Shown here: one piece after another, positions 1-59,100 of the stretch
Layout: each line of letters starts with the position of its first letter
Numbering within the stretch: the first letter of the stretch is position 1
NCBI GenBank assembly: GCA_020633295.1
Contig: JACKDW010000001.1
Span: 1,341,828 to 1,405,827, forward strand
Direction: 5' to 3'
DNA from: Myxococcales bacterium
GTDB lineage: Bacteria > Myxococcota_A > Polyangia > Nannocystales > Nannocystaceae
Length of the DNA: 64,000 bases
Notes under the pieces: generated by a model
Databases searched by the model: none
Told to the model about the DNA's origin: nothing
What the model saw: only the letters and a program-made list of their open reading frames with translations
Program-made: the position numbers and the translations under genes

Positions 1-40
1 GGCCCGCCGCGCGTGGGCCTTTGCTACGCTGACCGAGCGC

Positions 41-3000
41 GTGGGTCGTTCGTTGCACATGCAGCCACACCTCGAGATCCCGGGTATCGAGCTCGATCGG
101 TCCGTCGGCCAGGGCGCCGCGAGCCTCGTGTTCCGGGGCCGGTGCGCGCGCGCGGGCGCGGACAAGGTCGTCGCGGTCAAGCTGTTCACGCCGGCCCACC
201 ACGACTCGGCCGAGGCGCTGCGCCGACGTGTGATCCGCGAGGCCGCGCTGCTCGCCAGCCTCGACCACCCCGGGCTCGCCGAGATCTATGAGGTCGGCGA
301 GCACGAGGGGCGCCCCTACATCGTGATGGAGTTCATCGAGGGCCGCTCGCTCGCGTCCACGCTGGCGACGCGCGACGGCCCGCTCCCGACCCCGCGCGTG
401 CTCTCGGTCGCGCACGCCGTCGCCGAGGTGCTCGATCACGTCTGGCGCCGCGGGCTGGTCCACCGCGACCTGAAGCCGTCCAACATCCTGATCGACTCGA
501 GCGGGACCGTGAAGGTGATCGACTTCGGCTTCGCGGAGCTCTGGTCGCGGGACCCGGGGGACTGGTCAGCGGACGCGGGCAATCAGCGACCTGTCGGCAC
601 GTTCACGTACAGCGCGCCCGAGCAGACCGGGATCCTGCGCCGACCGGTCGACGGCCGCGCCGATCTGTACGCGCTCGGGGCGGTGCTGTACGAGTGCGCG
701 ACGGGGCGGCCGCCCTTCGTCGCCGACGACGTCGGCAGCCTCTTGCACATGCACGCGGCCGTGCGCCCTCGTGACCCCCGCGAGCGCAACCCGGCCGTCT
801 CGTCGGGGCTCGCGGCGATCATCGCCCGGCTCCTGCGCAAGGATCCTGAGGAGCGCTACCAGTCGGCCTCGGCGCTGCTCGCCGACCTCGCGCGCGTTGA
901 CGTCATCTCGGGCCAGCTCGACGCGCTGCCGAGCGGCGGCGCCGTCGACGACGCGTCGCCGGCCGAGCTCGTGGAGGAGCGCGTCGATCCGCCGCTCGGC
1001 GTGCTGTCAGCGCCCTCGGGCGACGGCATGAGCCCGCTGCTGAGGGCCCGGGAGCCGGAGCTGCGCGAGCTGCTCTCGCGCTGGCGGCGGACGATGGCGG
1101 GCCGTGGTTGCTTCGTGCTGATCGAGGGCTCCCCCGGCGCGGGCGGCCAGCCGCTGTGCGCGGGGCTGCGAGAGCGCGCGAGCGCGTCGGAGCGCGCGAT
1201 CGTGCTGCGCGGGCGCTGCGACGAGGAGCTCCACCTCGCCTTCGGCCCCTTCGCGCAGGCGCTCGTCAATTTCATGAGCGACGCGGCGGGCGGGCGCGCG
1301 TCGATCCTCGCGCGCCGCGGCCTGATCCGCGCCGCAGCCGGGGAGCGCCGCGCCGCGCTGGCCCGCCTGACCCCGCGGCTCGCCGGGCTCCTGGGCGTGC
1401 CGGCGACGAGCGTCGCGGCCCGCGAAGGGCTCACGGCCGAGCAGGTCGCGGCGGTCGTGCGGGTGCTGTGCGAGCTGGCCAAGTCGGGGAGCCCGGTGCT
1501 GCTGGTGCTCGAGGACGGGCAGTGGATCGACGAGTCGAGCCGCGAGGTGCTGACGGCGCTGCGACGGCGCTTGGAGGGTCCCGGCGCGCCGGCTTTGATG
1601 GTCGTGTGCACCACCCGCGACCGCGAGCGCGGCGACGCGCGGACCGGCGACGCGCGGACCGACGACGCGCGGGCCGACGACGCGGCGGACGAGGACGGCG
1701 ACGAGGTCGTGCGCCTGCGCCCGCTGCTGCGCTCGGCGGCGCGACGCGTGATCTCGGACTGCCTCGGCGGGCGCCCGGTCGACGCGGCGCTCGTGCGCGC
1801 CGTGCTGGCGCGCAGCGGCGAGCAGCCCGAGACCATCGTCGAGTGCGTGCGGACGATGCTCTCCGCCGGGATCCTGCGGCCGGCGTGGGGGGCGTGGGAG
1901 TTCGAGAGCGATCGCCTGCGCGAGCTCGGGCTGCCCGGCGACATGGCGTCGCTGGTGCTCCACCGGCTCGCCGACGTCGACGCCGGCGATCGCGACGTGC
2001 TGCGCTGGTCGGCGGTGCTCGGCGCCCGGTTCTCGCTCGCGCACCTGCCGTCGATCATCGAGCGCGACAGCGACGCGGTGGTGCGCGCGGTCGAGAACGG
2101 CACGCGCGCGGGCGTGATCGAGCGCGTGCACGGCGACGAGTACGGCTTCGTGCACCCGAGCATCCGCGCGGCGCTGCTCGGCGAGCTCTCGGGGACGCAG
2201 CGCCGCGCGTGCCACCTGCGGATCGCCGCGGCGCTCGACGCCATCCCGACGCTGACGGCCGCGCAGCTGTTCGGGCGCGCGCGCCACTACGCCGAGGCGC
2301 TCGACCACGAGACGGCGCGTCGCGTGTACGAGACCAACCGCAGCGCCGGCGCGCTCGCGCTGCGCACCCACGCCCCCGAGCACGCCTATCAATTCCTCGC
2401 CGCGGCGCTGCAGGCCCGCATGGTCGGCGGCCTCGGCGAGGACCTCGACCTCTACGAGACGCTCGGCGAGGTCTGCCTCCGGACGGCGCGCTACCGCCAG
2501 GCCGAGGCGCACCTGCGGCACCTGCTCGAGCGGCGCGACGAGCCGGCCGCGCGCGCGAGCGTGTGCGCGACGCTCGCGAGCGTGCACGCGGCCGCGCCCG
2601 ATGTCTCGTCCGCGCGCGCCAGTATCAAGCGCGGGCTCGAGGAGCTCGACCCGCCCCAGGCGACGCCCGACGGTCCGGGGCTCACCGGCGCGGTCGCGCG
2701 GCTGCGACGGTCGGTCGTGCGCGCGGCCGCCTGCGCGCGCGCGCGCGACGGGGATCAGCGCCGCGCGCTCGCGGCCGACGTCGCGCTGCGGCGCTGGGCG
2801 GCGGGTTTCGAGCTGGCGGAGCCAACCACGAGCGCGCGCTCGAGCACGTCCGCGCGGCGTTCGGCTCGGCGCGGCGGCTGCCGCGGGGCCCGCGCACGCG
2901 CGCCTCGACATCACCGGCGCGCAGGTCTGGGCCGCGCACGGCTACTTCGGGCGCGCGGACGAGCTGTGCGCGCGCGCCGAGGCGGAGGCCGAGCGGCTCG

Positions 3001-5392
3001 ACGACCCGGCGCTGCAGGGCGAGAGCCTGGTCGCGCGCGGCGTGCTGCTCGAGCACGCCGGCGACAGCGTGGGCGCCGCGAGCGTGCTCGACCGCGCGCT
3101 CGCGGACCACGGCGCGCGGCTCGACCCGTGGAACGCGACGCGCGCGCGGCTCGTGCTCGGTGGAGCCTCGTCCTTCGAGGACATGTCCGTGAAGCCATCT
3201 CGGTCCTCGAGCGCTCGAGCCGGCGCAGCGGCGCGGGCCTGCGCGCGCGCCCGAGGCCGCCGCCGCGCGCGGGCGCGGCGAGCGTGCTCAGGGCCTGCGA
3301 GGCGCTGCTCGGGCGCGGCGCGGAGAGCCGCCAGCGCTTCGAGCAGGCCCAGGAGCGGCTCGCCGACCACGACGTCGGGCGGCTGACGCGGGCGCTGCAC
3401 TCGCTCGCGCGCAACCTGGTGTTCGTCGAGGAGGGCGCGCTCACGGGCGCGCTCGAGCTCGAGTCGACGCTGTCGCGGTCGCTCGAGAGCGCGGCGCTCG
3501 GGGTCTCGAGCACGCCGCTCCTGCTGCGGCCGATGTGGCTGCTGCGGGCGCGCCAGCGGCTCGCGATGCTCGAGACCTCGCTCGATCGCGCGGGCGGCCG
3601 CACGGGCGGGCAGGAGCGCGATCGCATGCGCGCCGAGCTCGACGACGCGCTCGCGGACCTCGCGACCAACGCGCGCGAGCAGCCGGCGCTCGGCTGCCAC
3701 CTGCGCGTGCTGGAGGCCGCGCGCGCGCGCCTGGATCACGCCGAGGGTCGCGACGCGCGCGACCTCCAGCGCGCCCTCGAGATGCTCGGGCGGGCGCAGA
3801 GCGCCGCGTTCTCGGTCGACAGCCCGTGGGCGCTGTACGAGGTGCACCGCGAGCGCGCGCGCCTGCTGGCGACCATGGGGCACGGCGCGGCGGCGCGGCG
3901 CGAGGCGAACGCCGCGCTGCAGCTCGCGCTCGAGCAGGGCTGGGCGCCGCGCGCGAGGCGAGTCCGCGCCGAGTTCGAGCTCGTGGATCCGGCCCCGCGC
4001 GTGCTCGGGGGCTCGCGGGACTTCGAGACCGGCGAGGCCGCGGTGCCCACGCCCGGCCGGCTGCTCCGTCGCGGCGCGGCCGGGGGCAGCGCGCTCGATC
4101 GCTGCTTCGACTCGCTGCTCGAGGTCAGCCGCACCGCGGTCGCGCGCGGCGACGCGGAGCTGCGAGAGCAGGCGCGGCACGTGCTCGACGCGCTCATCTC
4201 GGCGATGGGGGCCGAGCGCGCGCTGCTGTTCGTGCACGAGGAGGGGCGCGACGAGCCGCGCGAGGGCGAGCCCGGCGAGCTCGGTCAGCTCCGGCGCATC
4301 GCGGGACGCGACAGCCGCGGGCGCGACCTCGAGGTCGGCGAGCGCTACAGCACGACGCTCGTCGAGCACGTCGTGGCCACGCGCGCGGTCCGGGTGATCG
4401 GCGGGACCGACGAGACCGAGCGCGCGCCGTCCGAGAGCGTCGAGTCCCTCGAGCTCAAGAGCGTCGTCGGGGCGCCGCTGCTCGTGCAGGACCGCCTCAT
4501 CGGCGTGGTGTACCTCGACAACCGCCTCGTCCGCGGGCTGTTCGGCCCGGAGGATCTTCGCCTGCTCGTCGCCATGTGCAACCACATCGCGATCGCGCTC
4601 GAGAGCTCGCGGCTGACCCGCTACATGCGGATCACGCGGGACCAGGCGCTCGAGGCGAGCAGGCTCAAGAGCGCCTTCCTGACGCACATGAGCCACGAGC
4701 TGCGGACGCCGCTCAACGCGGTCATCGGCTACAGCGAGATCCTCGCGGAGGACCTGGCGACGCGGGCCCCCGACGCGCTGCCGGATCTGACGCGCATCGG
4801 CGACGCGGGCAAGCACCTGCTCGAGCTGATCAGCGACGTCCTCGACCTCGCCAAGCTCGAGTCCGGCAAGCTCGAGCTGCATCGCGCCCGCTTCGAAATC
4901 GGCCCGCTCGTGGAGGAGGCGGTCGACTCGGTCAAGGGCGAGCTCGCGCGCAACGACAACGACCTGCAGGTGAGCTGCCCGCCCGGCATCGGCGAGCTGT
5001 GCTCCGACCGCCAGAGCGTGCTCCGAGTGCTGCGCGCGGTGCTCGGCAACGCCGCCAAGTTCACGCACCGCGGCGTCATCGAGCTCGACGTCCGCTGGCA
5101 CGCGCGCCACGACGGCAAGCACCTCGCGTGCGAGATCCGCGACTCCGGCATCGGCATGGCGCCCGATGACGTCGAGCGGCTGTTCACCGAGTTCTCGCAG
5201 GCGGACATGTCGACGACGCGCGAGTACGGCGGCGCGGGCCTCGGCCTCGCGATCAGCCAGCGGCTGTGCAAGCTGCTCGGCGGCTCGATCCACGTCGAGA
5301 GCCAGGAGGGCCGCGGCTCGACCTTCACGATCGTGCTGCCGGACAGCGAGCCGGAGCGAGCGGAGCGCGGGCTCTCGCCCGCGACGAGCTGA
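41..5392 (+). CDS. Multidomain signalling protein: N-terminal Ser/Thr protein kinase, AAA/NTPase, TPR-like helical region, GAF domain, C-terminal histidine kinase (HisKA + HATPase_c)
   Basis: Kinase motifs HRDLKPSNIL, DFG and SAPE near the N-terminus; Walker-like GSPGAGG; GAF-like region (VGAPLLVQDRLIGVVYLDN); C-terminal HELRTPLNAVIGYSEIL and GLGLAISQRLCKLLGG HATPase motifs. The reading frame is locally disrupted around 2826-3175, where real-looking peptide runs through the +1 and +2 frames before returning. Confidence 0.7.
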   Translation: MGRSLHMQPHLEIPGIELDRSVGQGAASLVFRGRCARAGADKVVAVKLFTPAHHDSAEALRRRVIREAALLASLDHPGLAEIYEVGEHEGRPYIVMEFIEGRSLASTLATRDGPLPTPRVLSVAHAVAEVLDHVWRRGLVHRDLKPSNILIDSSGTVKVIDFGFAELWSRDPGDWSADAGNQRPVGTFTYSAPEQTGILRRPVDGRADLYALGAVLYECATGRPPFVADDVGSLLHMHAAVRPRDPRERNPAVSSGLAAIIARLLRKDPEERYQSASALLADLARVDVISGQLDALPSGGAVDDASPAELVEERVDPPLGVLSAPSGDGMSPLLRAREPELRELLSRWRRTMAGRGCFVLIEGSPGAGGQPLCAGLRERASASERAIVLRGRCDEELHLAFGPFAQALVNFMSDAAGGRASILARRGLIRAAAGERRAALARLTPRLAGLLGVPATSVAAREGLTAEQVAAVVRVLCELAKSGSPVLLVLEDGQWIDESSREVLTALRRRLEGPGAPALMVVCTTRDRERGDARTGDARTDDARADDAADEDGDEVVRLRPLLRSAARRVISDCLGGRPVDAALVRAVLARSGEQPETIVECVRTMLSAGILRPAWGAWEFESDRLRELGLPGDMASLVLHRLADVDAGDRDVLRWSAVLGARFSLAHLPSIIERDSDAVVRAVENGTRAGVIERVHGDEYGFVHPSIRAALLGELSGTQRRACHLRIAAALDAIPTLTAAQLFGRARHYAEALDHETARRVYETNRSAGALALRTHAPEHAYQFLAAALQARMVGGLGEDLDLYETLGEVCLRTARYRQAEAHLRHLLERRDEPAARASVCATLASVHAAAPDVSSARASIKRGLEELDPPQATPDGPGLTGAVARLRRSVVRAAACARARDGDQRRALAADVALRRWAAGFELAEPTTSARSSTSARRSARRGGCRGARARAPRHHRRAGLGRARLLRARGRAVRARRGGGRAARRPGAAGREPGRARRAARARRRQRGRRERARPRARGPRRAARPVERDARAARARWSLVLRGHVREAISVLERSSRRSGAGLRARPRPPPRAGAASVLRACEALLGRGAESRQRFEQAQERLADHDVGRLTRALHSLARNLVFVEEGALTGALELESTLSRSLESAALGVSSTPLLLRPMWLLRARQRLAMLETSLDRAGGRTGGQERDRMRAELDDALADLATNAREQPALGCHLRVLEAARARLDHAEGRDARDLQRALEMLGRAQSAAFSVDSPWALYEVHRERARLLATMGHGAAARREANAALQLALEQGWAPRARRVRAEFELVDPAPRVLGGSRDFETGEAAVPTPGRLLRRGAAGGSALDRCFDSLLEVSRTAVARGDAELREQARHVLDALISAMGAERALLFVHEEGRDEPREGEPGELGQLRRIAGRDSRGRDLEVGERYSTTLVEHVVATRAVRVIGGTDETERAPSESVESLELKSVVGAPLLVQDRLIGVVYLDNRLVRGLFGPEDLRLLVAMCNHIAIALESSRLTRYMRITRDQALEASRLKSAFLTHMSHELRTPLNAVIGYSEILAEDLATRAPDALPDLTRIGDAGKHLLELISDVLDLAKLESGKLELHRARFEIGPLVEEAVDSVKGELARNDNDLQVSCPPGIGELCSDRQSVLRVLRAVLGNAAKFTHRGVIELDVRWHARHDGKHLACEIRDSGIGMAPDDVERLFTEFSQADMSTTREYGGAGLGLAISQRLCKLLGGSIHVESQEGRGSTFTIVLPDSEPERAERGLSPATS

Positions 5393-5516: not shown

Positions 5517-5612
5517 GACATGACTATTAAGACATGTACACCGCGGGCCGCTGGTCTGGCGCTCGCGCGGCGCCCCGGCCCTGCGCATGTGACATGTGCC
5601 TGTACACATGAC
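5517..5612. promoter_or_regulatory. Cluster of five ACATG motifs including ACATGACTATTAAGACATGT (direct repeat ACATG-N9-ACATG) in an AT-richer intergenic island
   Basis: Read directly: tgACATGactattaagACATGtacacc ... gcgCATGtgACATGtgcctgtacACATGac. The same 20-nt motif recurs at 40073 and 50413. Confidence 0.35.
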
Positions 5613-5758
5613 CCATTAGACACCCATATGATCTCGCGCTCCCGCGCGGTTCTGCGCGCACGTTTTCGCGCCGCGCGATAGCGCCACTGAGCGCGCAGAA
5701 CCGCGCCGCGGCGCGGCTGCGGGCGTGAATTTAACGAAATTATTCTTACAGATACTTG

Positions 5759-5782
5759 GATACTGATTTGAAGTTCAGTATC
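5759..5782. promoter_or_regulatory. Putative LexA/SOS operator: perfect palindrome GATACTGA-N8-TCAGTATC about 25 nt upstream of imuA
   Basis: 8-bp inverted repeat with 8-nt spacer. Contains GTTCAG, which is part of the reported Myxococcus LexA box, and a TACTG-N10-CAGTA core resembling the gammaproteobacterial SOS box. Positioned immediately upstream of the imuA-imuB-dnaE2 cassette, a classic LexA regulon. Confidence 0.5.
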
Positions 5783-5804: not shown

Positions 5805-6623
5805 GTGATGGGTGGGCTCAAAACGCGCGCCAACGCGCATATTCACGCACTCTGGGCGAATTCGTCGCAGGAGGAACAGGCCCGCGAAGACGCGGAGCGA
5901 CGCTCCGAGCGGGCGACAAAACAAACACCTGTCAGCCTCGCCGTCGCCGAGGATCTGACTCGAGATCGGGACGATGCGCATGCACGCGCGCCGGGTGAGC
6001 CGGAGCGCGCGCGCGAGGGGCTCGGGGCGCTCTGTCGACCCGGCAAGCTCCTCGAGCTCTCGGGCGACGGCGACGCGGCGCTGCTGACCACCGCCGCCGC
6101 CATCGTCCGCGAGGCCCAGCGCGAGCGCGAGACCACCGCGTGGGTGCAGCCCACGGGCGGCCCGCTGTTCCCGCCCGACCTCGCCGAGGCGGGCGTCGAC
6201 CTCGAGTCGCTGATCGTCGTCCACGTGCCCCGCCCCGCCCCGAGCGGGCGACCCAAGAGCGCCGCGCTCGAGCTGGCGCGCGCCGCCGAGCTCCTGCTGC
6301 GCTCGGGCGCGTTCGGCCTCGTCGTGCTCGACCTGTGCGAGGCGCCGCCGCCTCGCAGCAGCCGCCGCGGCGCCACCTGGCAGGCGCGCCTGCTCGCGCT
6401 CGCGCGGCAGCACCACAGCCGCCTCGTCATCCTGACCCAAAAGCCCGATCACCATGACTCCGCCGGACCGCTCGTCAACCTCCGCGTCGCGCCCCGCCGC
6501 GTGCTCCGGGCCAGCCCTCGCGGGCTCGGCTTCGAAGTCATCCCGCGTGTCCTCAAGGACAAGTCGGGTGACGCGCCGGCGCTCTCGCCCGACGCGCGCC
6601 GCGGCCCCTGGGGTCTCACCTGA
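5805..6623 (+). CDS. imuA: ImuA (RecA-fold SOS mutagenesis protein, SulA/ImuA family)
   Basis: Protein similarity to ImuA (LLELSGDGDAALLTTAAAIVREAQRERETTAWVQP); first gene of an imuA-imuB-dnaE2 arrangement; alternative ATG at 5808. Confidence 0.75.
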   Translation: MMGGLKTRANAHIHALWANSSQEEQAREDAERRSERATKQTPVSLAVAEDLTRDRDDAHARAPGEPERAREGLGALCRPGKLLELSGDGDAALLTTAAAIVREAQRERETTAWVQPTGGPLFPPDLAEAGVDLESLIVVHVPRPAPSGRPKSAALELARAAELLLRSGAFGLVVLDLCEAPPPRSSRRGATWQARLLALARQHHSRLVILTQKPDHHDSAGPLVNLRVAPRRVLRASPRGLGFEVIPRVLKDKSGDAPALSPDARRGPWGLT

Positions 6624-6672
6624 GCGCGCCGGGCCGCCGTCGCTGCCGCTGACGCCGACCCGCGATCGGACC

Positions 6673-8346
6673 ATGACGACCCCTCGGGCCTCGCCTGCGC
6701 GCGTGGCCTGCCTCGCGCTGCCCTCCCTGCCGCTGCAGCTCGCGCTGCGCGAGCGGCCGGCGTGGCGCGACCAGCCCGTGGTGGTGGTCGACAAGGAGGG
6801 CCCCCAGGGCGTGGTGCTGTGGGCCAACGCGCTCGCGCGCGCGGCCCGGATCACCCGCGGCACGCGGTACGCCGCCGCCTGCAGGGCTCGTCCCGGCGCT
6901 GCGCGCCGAGGTCGCGCGCGGGCGCCCGCGCTCGAGGAGGCCGGCGCGGCGCTGCTCGCCGCGCTGCAGCGCTGCTCGCCGCGCGTCGAGGCCTACGCCC
7001 TGAGCGCCCAGGATCTTCTGGCTCGACCCCTCCGGCCTCGAGCGGCTGTTCGGAGATCTCGAGCGCTGGGGCCTCGCGGTCGTCGCGGCCGTCGCCGAGT
7101 TTCGGAGCCCGACGCGACCGTCGTCATCGGCTTCACGCGCTTCGCCACCCTCGCGCTCGCGCGCCTGCGCGCGGCGCGACGCGCCTGCGCCCGTCTTGAT
7201 GCTCCAAGAGCCAGCCGAGGAGCGCGCGGCGCTGGACCGCGTGCCGCTCGCCGCGCTGCCCCGCGAGGACTTCCCGCCGCGCCTGCGCGAGAGACGCTCG
7301 CGCCCCTGGGCGTGCGCACGCTCGGCGACTTCCTCGCCCTGCCCGCGCCGGCGCTGCGGCTCCGGTTCGGGCGCGCCGCCGCCGAGCTGCACGCGCGCGC
7401 GCGCGGGCAGACCTTGGACCCGCTCACGCCGGCGGCGCTGCAGGAGCCCCTCGAGGTCAGCCGCGTCGTCGATCCGCCCGACGACCACCACGAGCGCCTG
7501 CTGTTCATCCTCAAGGAGGCGCTCGCCGAGCTGCTCGGCAAGCTCGACGCGGGCGGCGCGAGCGAGCGCGACGCCCTGCGCGCGCTGACCGTCGAATTCG
7601 AGTTCGACATGTCCATTGAGACATCCGATCTCGAGGACAGGCCCCAGGCCGCGGGCGACCCCGGGCGCCTCGAGCTGCGCCCGGGCGCGCCCACCCGCGA
7701 CCTGATGCAGCTCGTCGACCTGCTGCGCCTGCGGCTCGGCGAGCAGGCCACCCGCGGCGGCCTCCCGGCGCCTGTGCGCGCGCTGACCGTCACGGGCGAG
7801 CCCGAGCGCCTGCGCGACGCCCAGGTCGCGCTGCTCCCGGGGCAGCGCCCGCGTCGTGATCCCGAGGCCGTCGCCGCCGCGCTCGCGCGCCTGCGCGCCG
7901 CCTTCGGCGAGCAGGCGGTGACGCGCGCGCGCCTGCGCGACGCGATCCTCCCCGAGGCGAGCTTCACCTGGGAGCAGACGCTGCGCCCGAACGCGCGCCC
8001 CGCCCCGCCCGCGGATCCTTGGCCAGCCAACGATCACGATCCGCTGCAGCGCGCGCCGCTGCTGCGCCGGGTGTTCCCGCGTCCGCTGCCCCTGCCCGCG
8101 CCGCCCGACGGCGCGGCGCCCTGGCGCGTCCCGGAGCGCCCGCCGTTCGACATGTCCAACAAGACGTTTGAGCCGAGGATGACGACCGTGCGCCGCTTGC
8201 ACGGCCCGTTCCGCGTCAGCGGCGGCTGGTGGGCGCGGACCGTCGAGCGCGACTACTACTACGCCGAGACCGCCCGCGGCGCGCTGATGTGGATCTTCTA
8301 CGACCGCCCGCGCGACCGCTGGTTCTGGCACGGCCTGGTCGACTGA
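6673..8346 (+). CDS. imuB: ImuB (Y-family polymerase-like, catalytically inactive mutasome subunit); local frame switches at about 7010-7290
   Basis: N-terminus MTTPRASPARVACLALPSLPLQLALRERP is typical for ImuB. Y-family-like motifs LDPSGLERLFGDLERWGLAVVAAVAEF and LMLQEPAEERAALDRVPLAALP sit in the +1 frame, while ATVVIGFTRFATLALARL and ETLAPLGVRTLGDFLALPAPALRLRFG sit in the main frame, giving four apparent alternating frameshifts. The ORF-track frame stays open from 6454. Confidence 0.7.
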   Translation: MTTPRASPARVACLALPSLPLQLALRERPAWRDQPVVVVDKEGPQGVVLWANALARAARITRGTRYAAACRARPGAARRGRARAPALEEAGAALLAALQRCSPRVEAYALSAQDLLARPLRPRAAVRRSRALGPRGRRGRRRVSEPDATVVIGFTRFATLALARLRAARRACARLDAPRASRGARGAGPRAARRAAPRGLPAAPARETLAPLGVRTLGDFLALPAPALRLRFGRAAAELHARARGQTLDPLTPAALQEPLEVSRVVDPPDDHHERLLFILKEALAELLGKLDAGGASERDALRALTVEFEFDMSIETSDLEDRPQAAGDPGRLELRPGAPTRDLMQLVDLLRLRLGEQATRGGLPAPVRALTVTGEPERLRDAQVALLPGQRPRRDPEAVAAALARLRAAFGEQAVTRARLRDAILPEASFTWEQTLRPNARPAPPADPWPANDHDPLQRAPLLRRVFPRPLPLPAPPDGAAPWRVPERPPFDMSNKTFEPRMTTVRRLHGPFRVSGGWWARTVERDYYYAETARGALMWIFYDRPRDRWFWHGLVD

Positions 8347-8347
8347 T

Positions 8348-8431
8348 CGCGACCTCCTCCGCGACCTCCTCCGCGACCTCCTCCGCGACCTCCTCCGCGA
8401 CCTCCTCCGCGACCTCCTCCGCGACCTCCTT
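8348..8431. repeat. Tandem repeat, 12-nt unit CGCGACCTCCTC x7 in the imuB-dnaE2 intergenic spacer
   Basis: Seven perfect or near-perfect copies read directly, starting 2 nt after the imuB stop and ending 33 nt before the dnaE2 start. Confidence 0.8.
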
Positions 8432-8463
8432 CTTCTCGCCCTCCACCCCCTCACCGGATCGCC

Positions 8464-11739
<3,276 letters not shown>

Positions 11740-55699: not shown

Positions 55700-56180
55700 G
55701 TTCGTCCTCCACCCGCGTCTCCGCGTATAAATGTCTCGTCCCGCGTGCTCCGGGGCCTGCGTAGCCGGGGGGGCTCGGGCCGGGGAGCCGGGGGTGTGGC
55801 GCGGTCTCCTCGCGCCACCGTCTCCACTTGGGCAGTGATTCCCGAGCGGTCAACAATTGCGCCCGTTCGAAAAAAAGTTCGAAACGGCGAGAAACCGGGG
55901 ATCGATTCCTCGATCGCGTGGTCTCAGCCCCACGGCTCGCGGGCCGGGGGCGAGCGCGCGCGGAGGCGCGCACGAGCCCGCGAGCCCGTACAGGTCGGGC
56001 CGACAGCTCGTCGCCGCCGGTCGCGTGACCGCTCGTCGCAGGGTGTAGGTGCTCTGGAAGTGTTCGCTCCCGCGGAATCAATTGCTTCCCCCGCGAGATT
56101 TCTTGCGCGCGCGTCGACGCAATTGCTGGGCGCGCTCGGGTCACTGCCCCCTTGGTGCCGGCCCCCGGCACGGTGAACGC

Positions 56181-59100
56181 ATGGAACCCGCGCAGCTGAT
56201 CCAGCATGATCACGACGAGCCCGTGATCGACCCGAAGGACAACCTCGACGCGGCGTCGCTCGCCGACGCGCGCACGATCCTGCGCGAGCGCGAAGATGAT
56301 CGCGCGCGCTCGTCGGGCCGCGCGGCCGAGCCGCTCGCGCTCGGCGACGATCGCGAGCGGCTCGGACTGGCGCGAACCTACACGCCGCCCCCGGCGTCGC
56401 GCGACGACGAGCTCGCGCTCAGCGATACGCGCCACTCCGACGCGCCGCTGGCGCTGCGCGACACCCAGGCGACGCAGCCCGACCGCAAGCTCGCGTTCCG
56501 CGACACCCAGGCCTCGGCCTCGCAGAATCACCTCGCGGTCAGCGACACGATCGCCTCGGACTCGGCGCACCCGGACTTCGCGAAGGCCGCGGGCACCGAG
56601 GATCCGCGGATCAAGGATCTGGTCCGCGCGCAGCTGTTCAAGCGCCGCGCCGCGCCCGTCAAGCTCGGGCGCTTCACGGTCATCGGGCGCCTCGGCGAGG
56701 GCGGCATGGGGGTCGTCTACGCGGCCTACGACGATCGCCTCGATCGCAAGATCGCGGTCAAGGTGCTGCGCGGCCGCGGGAGCGAGAGCTCGACCGGGCA
56801 CGCCCGGCTGCTGCGCGAGGCCCAGGCCATGGGCCGGCTCTCGCACCCGAACATCGTCGCGGTGCACGAGGTCGGCGAGCTGCCCGACGGCGAGGTGTTC
56901 GTCGCCATGGAGTTCGTCCGCGGCCACACGCTGCAGAGCTGGGTCGAGGCCGCGCCCCGCAGCTGGCGCGAGATCGTCGCGGTCTACCGCATGGCCGGCC
57001 GCGGGCTGCAGGCGGCCCACGACGCGCGCCTGGTCCACCGCGACTTCAAGCCCCACAACGTGCTCGTCGGCGACGACGGCGTGGTCAAGGTCCTCGACTT
57101 CGGCCTGGCGCGCGGGACAGGTTTCTCGACGCCCGCGCTCGAGGCGGCCGCGGGCGACGACGCCGGCGGGCCGCCGGCCGACTCCGTGCTCGACACGACG
57201 CTCACGCGCACCGGCGCCGTCATGGGCACGCCGGCGTACATGTCCCCCGAGCAACATGAGGGGCGCCCGGCCGGGCCCGCGTCCGACCAGTTCAGCTTCT
57301 GCGTCTCGCTGCACGAGGCGCTCTACGGTCAGCACCCCTACCGCTGCGACTCTCTGCTCGACCTGGTCGCGAGCGTGACCACGGGAGCGCTCGTCGAGCC
57401 GCCTGCGGGCGCGCGCGTGCCGGGATGGCTGCGCCGCGTGATCCTCAAGGGCCTCGCGGTCAAGCCGGAGGATCGCCACCCGTCGATGGCCGCGCTGGTC
57501 GAGGCGCTGGGACGCGATCCGGCCCGCGCGCGCCGGCGCTGGCTGTCCGTCGCGGGCGTCGCGGGGCTCGCCGCCGTCGGCAGCTTCGGCGTCGCGCGCG
57601 TGAGCGCCGACGCGATCGATACCTGTCCCGACGCGCAGATCGAGCTCGACGGGGTGTGGGACGACGCGCGCCGCGAGCAAGTCCGCGCGGCGCTGCTCGC
57701 CACCGAGCTGCCCTTCGCCGCAGAGACCTTCGACCGGATCGCGCCGCAGCTCGACGGCTACGCGGCGGCGTGGACGAGCGCGCGCGCGGACGCCTGTCAG
57801 ACGCACCTCCAGGGTCGACAGTCGGACGCGCTCTTCGACCAGCGCACAGCCTGCCTCGACCAGCGCCGCGCCGGTCTGCGTGAGCTCGTCGACGGTATGG
57901 CGAGCGTCTCCGCCGACGCGGTGATCAACCTGCCAACCGCTGTCTCGCAGCTCCCCGCCGTCGCGCGCTGCAGCGACACCGAGGCGCTGACCGCCGCGGT
58001 CGCGCCACCCGAGGACCCAGCGTTGGCGTCGGCGGTCACGGGGGCGCGTGAGGAGCTGGCGCGCGCGCGGTCACTCGGCTTGCTGGGCCGCTTCGACAAC
58101 GCGTCCGCGCTCGCCGACGCGGTGAGCGTGGGCGACGCGGCCCAGCAATACCCGCCGCTCGCGGCCGAGGCGACCCTCGAGCGCGGCCGCCTCCAGATCG
58201 AGAGCTTCCAGATCGTCCCGGCGGATCAGACCCTCGAGCGCGCGCTGCTGCTCGCGCTTGCGAGCGAGCACGACGAGGCCGCGGCCGAGGCGATCGCGCG
58301 CCGCGTGTTCGCGCTCTCGGAGAACAACGACCCACCGGCCGCGATTGCGCTGGCCCCCTTGGCGACGGCGCTCGTCGACCGGTTGGGCTCGCGCGGCGGC
58401 GATCTCCGCGCGCTCCTCCTGAACAACCTCGGCAGCGCGTACGCCTCAAACGGCGACTACGCGCACGCGCGCGAGAGCTACCTCGAGAGCGTCGAACTCA
58501 AGCGAACGCTCGGCCCGCAGCACCCCGAACTCGCGTTCACGCTGGTGAACCTCGGCGATCTGCTCGTCGATCAGCACGACTACGACGCTGCGCTCGAGCA
58601 CGACGAACGGGCGTACGCGATCATCGAGTCACGCTACGGGCCGCAGCACCCGTTCGCGGGCATGATCAGGCAACAATGTCGCGGTCGCGATGCTGCGCGC
58701 GGACTACTTCACGCGCGCGCGCGCGAGGTGACCAGCGAGCGCGCGCGCTCATCGAGGCACGCGCTCGGCGGCGACGCGCCGATCCTCAGCTACGTTTACG
58801 GGACCGAGGGCCGTCTCGCGCTCCTCGAGCGCCGATACGCCGACGCGCGCGACCACTTCGCGAAGCGCTCGCGCGCTTCGAGGCGAGCGGCGCGGGCGAC
58901 TCGATCGAGAGCGTGCTCCCACGGCACGGCTACGCTGACGCGCTCGCGGGCCTCGGGACCTCGAGCGCGCGCGGGAGGAACACGCGCGCGCGCTCGAGCT
59001 GCGGGTGAAAGCGTTCGGCGAGGACGCGAACGTCGCGGAGTCTCACGAGCGCCTCGGGGAATTTGAGTTCCGGTTCGGTGACCCTTCGCTCGCCAATGAG

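Follow-up and report, generated by a model that had tools for sequence, protein, structure and literature searches.

An ACATGT palindrome in the intergenic DNA of Nannocystaceae-like myxobacteria, a probable operator of a dimeric regulator

What kind of element is the 20-nt motif that recurs, almost unchanged, between the genes of a Nannocystaceae chromosome? The window, i.e. the whole stretch of 64,000 nucleotides analysed here (about 72% GC), holds it upstream of the imuA-imuB-dnaE2 operon and beside genes for lipoproteins. An earlier note on this DNA described it as a direct repeat of ACATG that might be read either by a dimeric transcription factor or by an alternative sigma factor. The Nannocystaceae possess very large genomes and rich secretomes, and almost no transcription-factor regulons are known in them. 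Comparison of the sites across genomes indicates that the motif is most likely a newly recognised family-wide operator, an element of a familiar type in a lineage that has received little study.

Copies of the element in the window

The gene map of the window was built from third-position GC content and Pfam matches. The sites and their possible target genes are as follows.

5518-5537, box 1, ACATGACTATTAAGACATGT, one mismatch (A6) to the family palindrome
5592-5625, degenerate array of three hexamers, ACATGT-N8-ACATGA-N8-ACACCC, comprising overlapping boxes at 5592-5611 and 5606-5625
5808-11739, plus strand, imuA-imuB-dnaE2 operon, possible target of box 1 and of the 5592-5625 array
38564-39559, minus strand, ADYC-domain lipoprotein gene, possible distant target of box 2
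40073-40092, box 2, ACATGACTTTTAAGACATGT, one mismatch (A6) to the family palindrome
45580-45599, weak candidate, ACATGTCCATAAATGCATCT, four mismatches to the family consensus, with a minus-strand gene on one side and a trypsin-like protease gene on the other
50412-50431, box 3, ACATGTCTATTTAGACATAT, one mismatch (A19) to the family palindrome
50471-51646, plus strand, DUF6923 lipoprotein gene, best-placed possible target of box 3

The recurrence of a near-identical 20-nt motif, as first described, is real, with three near-identical copies in the window and none in shuffled sequence. The sequences reported earlier all exist, and their positions were a few bases off: box 1, for example, had been placed at 5523-5545, and the variant given as 50413-50436 is a genuine copy whose exact position is 50412-50431. 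The further ACATG motifs that had been noticed near imuA are likewise present and form the second, degenerate site at 5592-5625. A looser copy, reported at about 45568-45590, is placed here at 45580-45599, and its membership is doubtful because two equally poor matches fall within the coding sequence of imuB.

The frequency of the motif in the window is above expectation. A degenerate pattern allowing up to three mismatches identifies only boxes 1 to 3 in the window and nothing in 100 dinucleotide-preserving shuffles, and the family consensus with up to four mismatches also has no match in shuffles, so that chance is excluded. The simpler pattern ACATG-N10-CATGT, with at most one mismatch, has eight matches in the window against 0.27 expected.

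All three strong sites are intergenic, and they are alike over 20 bp only, their flanking DNA being unrelated. Box 1 lies 126 nt after the stop codon (5392) of a giant Ser/Thr-kinase/histidine-kinase gene and 271 nt before the ATG of imuA (5808); the array at 5592-5625, in the same intergenic region, overlaps a sigma-70-like promoter match, TACACA-18-TATGAT (5603-5632). Box 2 is located in an intergenic region of about 520 bp with lower GC content, 24 nt from the stop codon of the STAND kinase-FGE gene and 514 nt from the ADYC lipoprotein gene downstream of it, and is followed by a run of T on the plus strand. Box 3 sits between divergent genes: the DUF6923 lipoprotein gene has its ATG 40 nt beyond the box, and on the other side the minus-strand gene has its longest-ORF start 28 nt away. 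The ATG contained in boxes 1 and 2 also opens small ORFs; their third-position GC is low, and on inspection by eye they were considered non-coding. A shared block seen near three sites, CGTTTTCGCG, was dropped, as it is also found elsewhere.

Three large Ser/Thr-kinase fusion genes are encountered within the 64 kb: at 1-5392 (kinase-AAA-GAF-histidine kinase), 40116-44306 (kinase-STAND-FGE) and 56049-59066 (kinase-TPR). Box 1 follows closely on the 3' end of one of these genes and box 2 on that of another, and the site of a related locus, L019, also abuts a kinase gene.

Distribution of the palindrome and its neighbouring genes

An exact scan with ACATGWCTWTTWAGACATGT, covering one genome per species for 185,579 species, returned 26 loci, to which the window's own boxes 1 and 2 do not belong. 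Twenty-one of these are found in 11 assemblies of Nannocystaceae, Polyangia or Myxococcales (referred to below as Nannocystaceae-like myxobacteria), including N. punicea, N. pusilla, N. sp. RBIL2 (4 sites) and Co_bin.371 (4 sites). Three are from Rhodobacteraceae, where they occupy the gtaR-luxI promoter, and the remaining two are from very AT-rich genomes, in line with chance. Every myxobacterial locus in the scan is a perfect palindrome, ACATGTCT-WWWW-AGACATGT. With its flanks, the consensus is R-ACATGTCT-WWWW-AGACATGT-Y, containing two ACATGT hexamers 14 bp apart, and the flanking preference is itself symmetric (R at -1 and Y at +1 in 30 of 40 half-sites). The element is thus an inverted repeat and not, as had been proposed, a direct repeat of ACATG, which it resembles because the ACATGT hexamer is self-complementary.

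The sequence is conserved across genera whose GC content ranges from 60 to 75%, with one to four perfect copies per genome. None of the 20 myxobacterial sites that could be judged is clearly within a gene, although for two of them (L007 and L011) there is overlap with a roughly called ORF. Where the adjacent genes are arranged in tandem, the site is closer to the upstream stop than to the downstream start in 11 of 14 cases; many sites are 150-600 nt from the next start, the full range running from about 0 to more than 600 nt, and two (L019 and L032) lie between convergent genes. A second, weaker site overlapping the first by one hexamer, at an offset of 14 bp, is present in L013, L014, L023, L029 and L032, and L026 possesses a second palindrome 32 bp away; the array at 5592-5625 of the window repeats the overlapping arrangement. 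No promoter hexamers were seen at a fixed distance from the box.

A metagenome scan gave mostly gtaR promoters and AT-rich chance matches, with a single high-GC site, and a collection of viral contigs gave one match. A literature search by motif sequence matched only papers on p53. Two metagenome contigs of 58-60% GC (L036:1506 and L050:7674) carry a palindrome with 18-bp arms, GGAGTTTGACATGTCTTATAAGACATGTCAAACTCC, around the same core.

In function, the genes that adjoin the sites are mixed, with secreted lipoproteins containing Thr/Ser/Asp-rich linkers as a recurring type. For example, Cys-rich repeat proteins with DUF4215 are found beside the sites of L013, L025 and L027 and a P-domain lipoprotein beside that of L024, while the window contributes the ADYC and DUF6923 lipoproteins. 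The earlier remark that several flanked genes encode secreted lipoproteins therefore holds as a tendency across related loci. Among four promoters of DUF6923 homologues, one (L059) has a related site, TCATGTCCCAAGAGACATAT, 157 nt upstream.

Conservation at orthologous promoters, which had been named as a test of the motif, is partial in the case of imuA. By its ImuA homologues the window belongs to Nannocystaceae-like Myxococcota. The nearest assembled relative of the window, with 69% ImuA identity, is L001 (Co_bin.371), which possesses a box, ACATGTTGATAGAAACATGT (L001:6945-6964), about 200 nt upstream of imuA. This box aligns with 5592-5611 of the window and is orthologous to it, although most of the surrounding spacer has diverged. 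Four more distant Nannocystaceae imuA promoters (L004, L005, L057 and L058) have no ACATGT box. A different palindrome of the form CTG-N10-CAG, TACTGATTTGAAGTTCAGTA, is located at 5761-5780, 28 nt before the imuA ATG of the window, and its core, CTGA-N8-TTCAGT, is invariant in all six Nannocystaceae imuA promoters. This palindrome probably serves the family as its LexA/SOS box. The ACATGT box is accordingly to be regarded as a separate, lineage-specific input, and in the lineage of the window it would add to the operon of the error-prone polymerase a second input apart from SOS.

The imuA leader also contains a GC-rich inverted repeat of 25 nt (5635-5659/5691-5715), 88% complementary and with 31 nt between its arms, which lies between the distal box array and the SOS-type box.

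Operator and alternative readings of the palindrome

The motif probably serves as the operator of a dimeric helix-turn-helix regulator with sequence specificity. This regulator would be encoded elsewhere in the genome and be common to the Nannocystaceae-like myxobacteria as a conserved protein. The operator reading is supported by the family-wide conservation, the intergenic placement, the orthologous imuA site, the tandem sites and the match to the GtaR and PadR operators described below, all of which agree with the dimeric transcription factor operator suggested at the outset. The operator would be a palindrome of 20-22 bp in which each monomer reads one CATG half-site, the CATG cores being 10 bp apart. 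Overlapping or nearby sites (hexamers with a period of 14 bp, pairs 32 or 88 bp apart) would allow cooperative binding. Box 3 and the 5592-5625 array may act in repression by promoter occlusion, as GtaR does at gtaRI, whereas boxes 1 and 2, which are far upstream, may be auxiliary or looping sites. Several observations weigh against an operator: many sites are poorly placed for a classical one, being nearer to the upstream stop, 150-600 nt from the next gene or between convergent genes; no candidate regulator gene is found in the window or among 87 ORFs around 20 related sites; and the neighbours are mixed, with sites in one of four DUF6923 promoters and two of six imuA promoters.

The position of many sites just past stop codons, and of two between convergent genes, raises the alternative of a nucleic-acid hairpin in place of a protein operator, the palindrome serving as a terminator, as a stabiliser of mRNA 3' ends or as a REP-like element. 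Unrelated sequence extends the palindrome by 8 extra pairs in L032, 6 in L012 and 5 in L021; the L032 hairpin folds at -30 kcal/mol, and the T-run after box 2 is of the kind such a reading would favour. These extensions, together with the sites between convergent genes, are left unexplained by the operator model. The core RNA hairpins of boxes 2 and 3 are nevertheless weak, their folding energies being -4.6 to -6.5 kcal/mol and their z-scores -1.5 to -2.6, most sites are without a T-run, and a terminator scan detected no terminator-like feature at boxes 1 to 3. Among 21 imperfect sites, arm deviations amount to 31 broken pairs, 8 G-T pairs and only 4 compensated pairs; the CATG cores persist while the complementarity of the arms breaks, and the same A-A mismatch recurs at independent sites. 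What is conserved from genus to genus is therefore the sequence and not a structure alone, selection acting on the bases themselves and not on their pairing, and the broken pairing and the unrelated flanks speak against both a hairpin and a mobile element. REP and other short palindromic intergenic repeats resemble the motif in their shortness, in their place between genes and in frequently lying close to gene 3' ends, but the present motif differs from them in its low copy number, its conservation of sequence across genera, its unpaired variants and its unrelated flanks. Taken as a whole the hairpin reading is improbable. The end of a mobile element or a MITE was likewise rejected, on account of the unrelated flanks and the single match in viral contigs; the broken pairing, the low copy number and that single match favour recognition of the sequence by a protein.

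The remaining alternatives concern promoters and the SOS response. Two conserved blocks at a fixed spacing, in AT-rich intergenic DNA, might be taken for a -35/-10-like pair of ACATG blocks recognised by an alternative sigma factor, as had also been proposed. The element is, however, a perfect palindrome in the relatives and so has no inherent direction. Neither its orientation to downstream genes nor its distance from them (about 0 to more than 600 nt) is constant, some copies are flanked by convergent genes, and in Rhodobacteraceae the identical 20-mer lies across an ordinary TTGAC-type promoter in the manner of an operator. An asymmetric element at a fixed distance and orientation is not what is found, and this proposal can be considered highly improbable. 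Rather less improbable, yet still unlikely, is a sigma-54 reading, in which the box would be the upstream activator sequence of an enhancer-binding protein, bound by a dimer or a hexamer-forming activator acting remotely on the sigma-54 promoters of genes for lipoproteins. The only two matches to TGGCAC-N5-TTGCW in the window (at most one mismatch), at 39599-39614 and 50456-50471, both on the minus strand, are in intergenic regions that hold a box, many sites are 150-600 nt upstream of the next gene, and the two palindromes of L026 are 32 bp apart, a spacing also known for NtrC sites. Such matches number at least two in 11 of 100 shuffles, however; the box is downstream of the start site predicted from the match at 50456-50471, nearly 500 nt separate box and promoter at site 2, and no sigma-54-like match is found near the boxes of other loci or upstream of imuA. 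The presence of the motif upstream of imuA in both the window and L001, together with the xTGT-N8-ACAx geometry of the E. coli LexA box, could indicate that it is the SOS (LexA) box of this lineage, controlling the imuA-imuB-dnaE2 mutagenesis operon. In Beta- and Gammaproteobacteria the LexA SOS box is CTGT-N8-ACAG. The motif is like the LexA box and the Vibrio fischeri lux box, which are bound by dimers, in being a palindrome of 20 bp with a TGT-N8-ACA core, but it has A before TGT, where these known boxes need C. It is absent from four of the six imuA promoters, the CTG-N10-CAG box at 5761-5780 stands apart from it as the conserved element of all six, and among the genes beside more than 20 other boxes none matched a recognised DNA-repair family; hardly any likelihood is left to a role as the LexA box.

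Candidate regulators and other features of the window

GtaR is a LuxR-family repressor of quorum sensing in Rhodobacteraceae, marine bacteria not related to the Nannocystaceae, and its binding site is a lux-type box. The binding motif of GtaR, derived from 24 species of Rhodobacteraceae, is RACMTGTCYWWWWRGACAKGTY, 22 bp in length (PMC11655674). The palindrome built from 20 myxobacterial sites and their flanks agrees with it: none of the 22 positions conflicts with the Nannocystaceae consensus, either at the W4 centre or in the R/Y flanks, and the window boxes deviate at one position each. A GtaR regulatory region may also hold several sites. Furthermore, an identical 20-mer, ACATGTCTTTTTAGACATGT, is found on Rhodobacteraceae gtaR-luxI promoters, at three loci of the genome scan and in six metagenome contigs, including the following.

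L016:2673-2692, identical 20-mer on a gtaR (luxR)-luxI promoter
L028:1133-1152, identical 20-mer on a gtaR (luxR)-luxI promoter
L033, L040, L041, L049, L052 and L053, identical 20-mer on gtaR (luxR)-luxI promoters

The final ATG of the palindrome doubles as the gtaR (luxR) start codon in L016 and L028, and L028 also has a TTGAC -35 hexamer, 17 nt upstream of the centre of the palindrome. This suggests that the gtaR transcript is leaderless and autorepressed. The LuxR protein encoded beside the motif in Rhodobacteraceae contains PF03472, and the names given to its homologues are LuxR-family or autoinducer-binding-domain protein. The myxobacterial sites differ from this arrangement in several respects. 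The Rhodobacteraceae box coincides in part with gtaR's own -10 region and start codon, whereas no autoinducer-binding LuxR or luxI gene stands beside any myxobacterial site, the neighbouring genes are different, and no GtaR-like protein was traced to myxobacteria. According to a 2026 preprint, no complete LuxR/LuxI system is documented in myxobacteria (PMC12919014).

The canonical operator of PadR is an ATGT-N8-ACAT repeat (PMC3506622), which the motif contains. The B. subtilis padC operator, defined by crystallography, is AACATGTAAATAGTTACATGAT, in which PadR reads CNTGNA-N6-TNCANG (PMC5728393). Its outer hexamers and their spacing are identical to those of the motif, the two share a CNTG-N10-CANG geometry with cores 10 bp apart, and the ACATGT-N8-ACATGA of padC is the arrangement present at 5592-5611 of the window. 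The inner positions preferred by PadR (A11/T18), on the other hand, are C/G in the motif (CATGTC...GACATG), the conserved CT-W4-AG centre of the motif is foreign to the PadR consensus, and there is no adjacent, autoregulated padR gene at the window or related sites, although one may lie farther off.

As this geometry is common to GtaR, PadR, LexA and lux boxes, it does not by itself fix the protein family, and it is the match over the full length of the GtaR box that favours a GerE/LuxR-type protein and places a PadR-type protein second. A LuxR/GerE-type regulator with GtaR-like specificity is thus the leading candidate, though a tentative one, and a winged-helix protein of the PadR type is a less likely second.

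The gene of the regulator was sought near the sites. A Pfam scan of about 45 ORFs of the window identified no PadR, LuxR/GerE or LexA gene, and the same is true of 87 ORFs (54 small and 33 flanking) in the 8-kb loci around 20 related sites. No recurrent regulator is present among these two sets of ORFs, which include a single MocR-type GntR protein. In particular, no cognate LuxR-family gene combining autoinducer-binding and GerE domains is found in the window or within about 4 kb of the 20 sites, and a tblastn search of the myxobacterial loci with GtaR gave no match; weak hits in L020 and L021 fall inside unrelated proteins and were discarded. A search of representative proteins with GtaR gave 746 clusters. 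Ten of these, GtaR-like and with the composition expected of high-GC genomes, were sampled, and all five that carry a name are from Rhodobacterales. With no regulator gene near the sites, the regulator must act in trans.

The GtaR-box match raises the question of whether a lux-type regulator operates in predators for whose response to the acyl-homoserine lactones of prey no mechanism is known. The box might be read by a LuxR-family protein of GtaR-like specificity. This protein could be a receptor for acyl-homoserine lactones that either came from marine Alphaproteobacteria or is held in common with them. This specific form of the proposal is unlikely; if it were true, the Nannocystaceae would possess a lux-type regulon over secreted lipoproteins and, in the lineage of the window, over imuA-imuB-dnaE2. 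It would be the first signal-responsive regulon of LuxR type in myxobacteria and a possible route by which prey signals are sensed. Whatever the protein family, the probable 20-bp operator offers a handle for the isolation of the regulator by DNA affinity and for defining a regulon that seems to be rich in lipoproteins.

Other features of the window are also of note. The ADYC-domain lipoprotein (38564-39559, minus strand) contains six tandem MNGYR pentapeptide repeats, and the sigma-54-like match at 39599-39614 on the minus strand is about 40 nt upstream of its gene. At 30528-33353, on the plus strand, a gene for a bacterial vault-protein-like product of 941 amino acids matches the domains MVP_shoulder, Vault_3 and Vault_4, and a TerB-domain gene is located just upstream of it. 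Just 3' of the vault-like gene, at 33380-33407, lies a perfect palindrome with 8-bp arms, CGAACATG-N10-CATGTTCG, which has the CATG-N10-CATG core of the motif but a GC-rich centre; a cluster of tRNA-Thr, tRNA-Gly and tRNA-Ser genes (33512-34025) begins about 105 nt further on.
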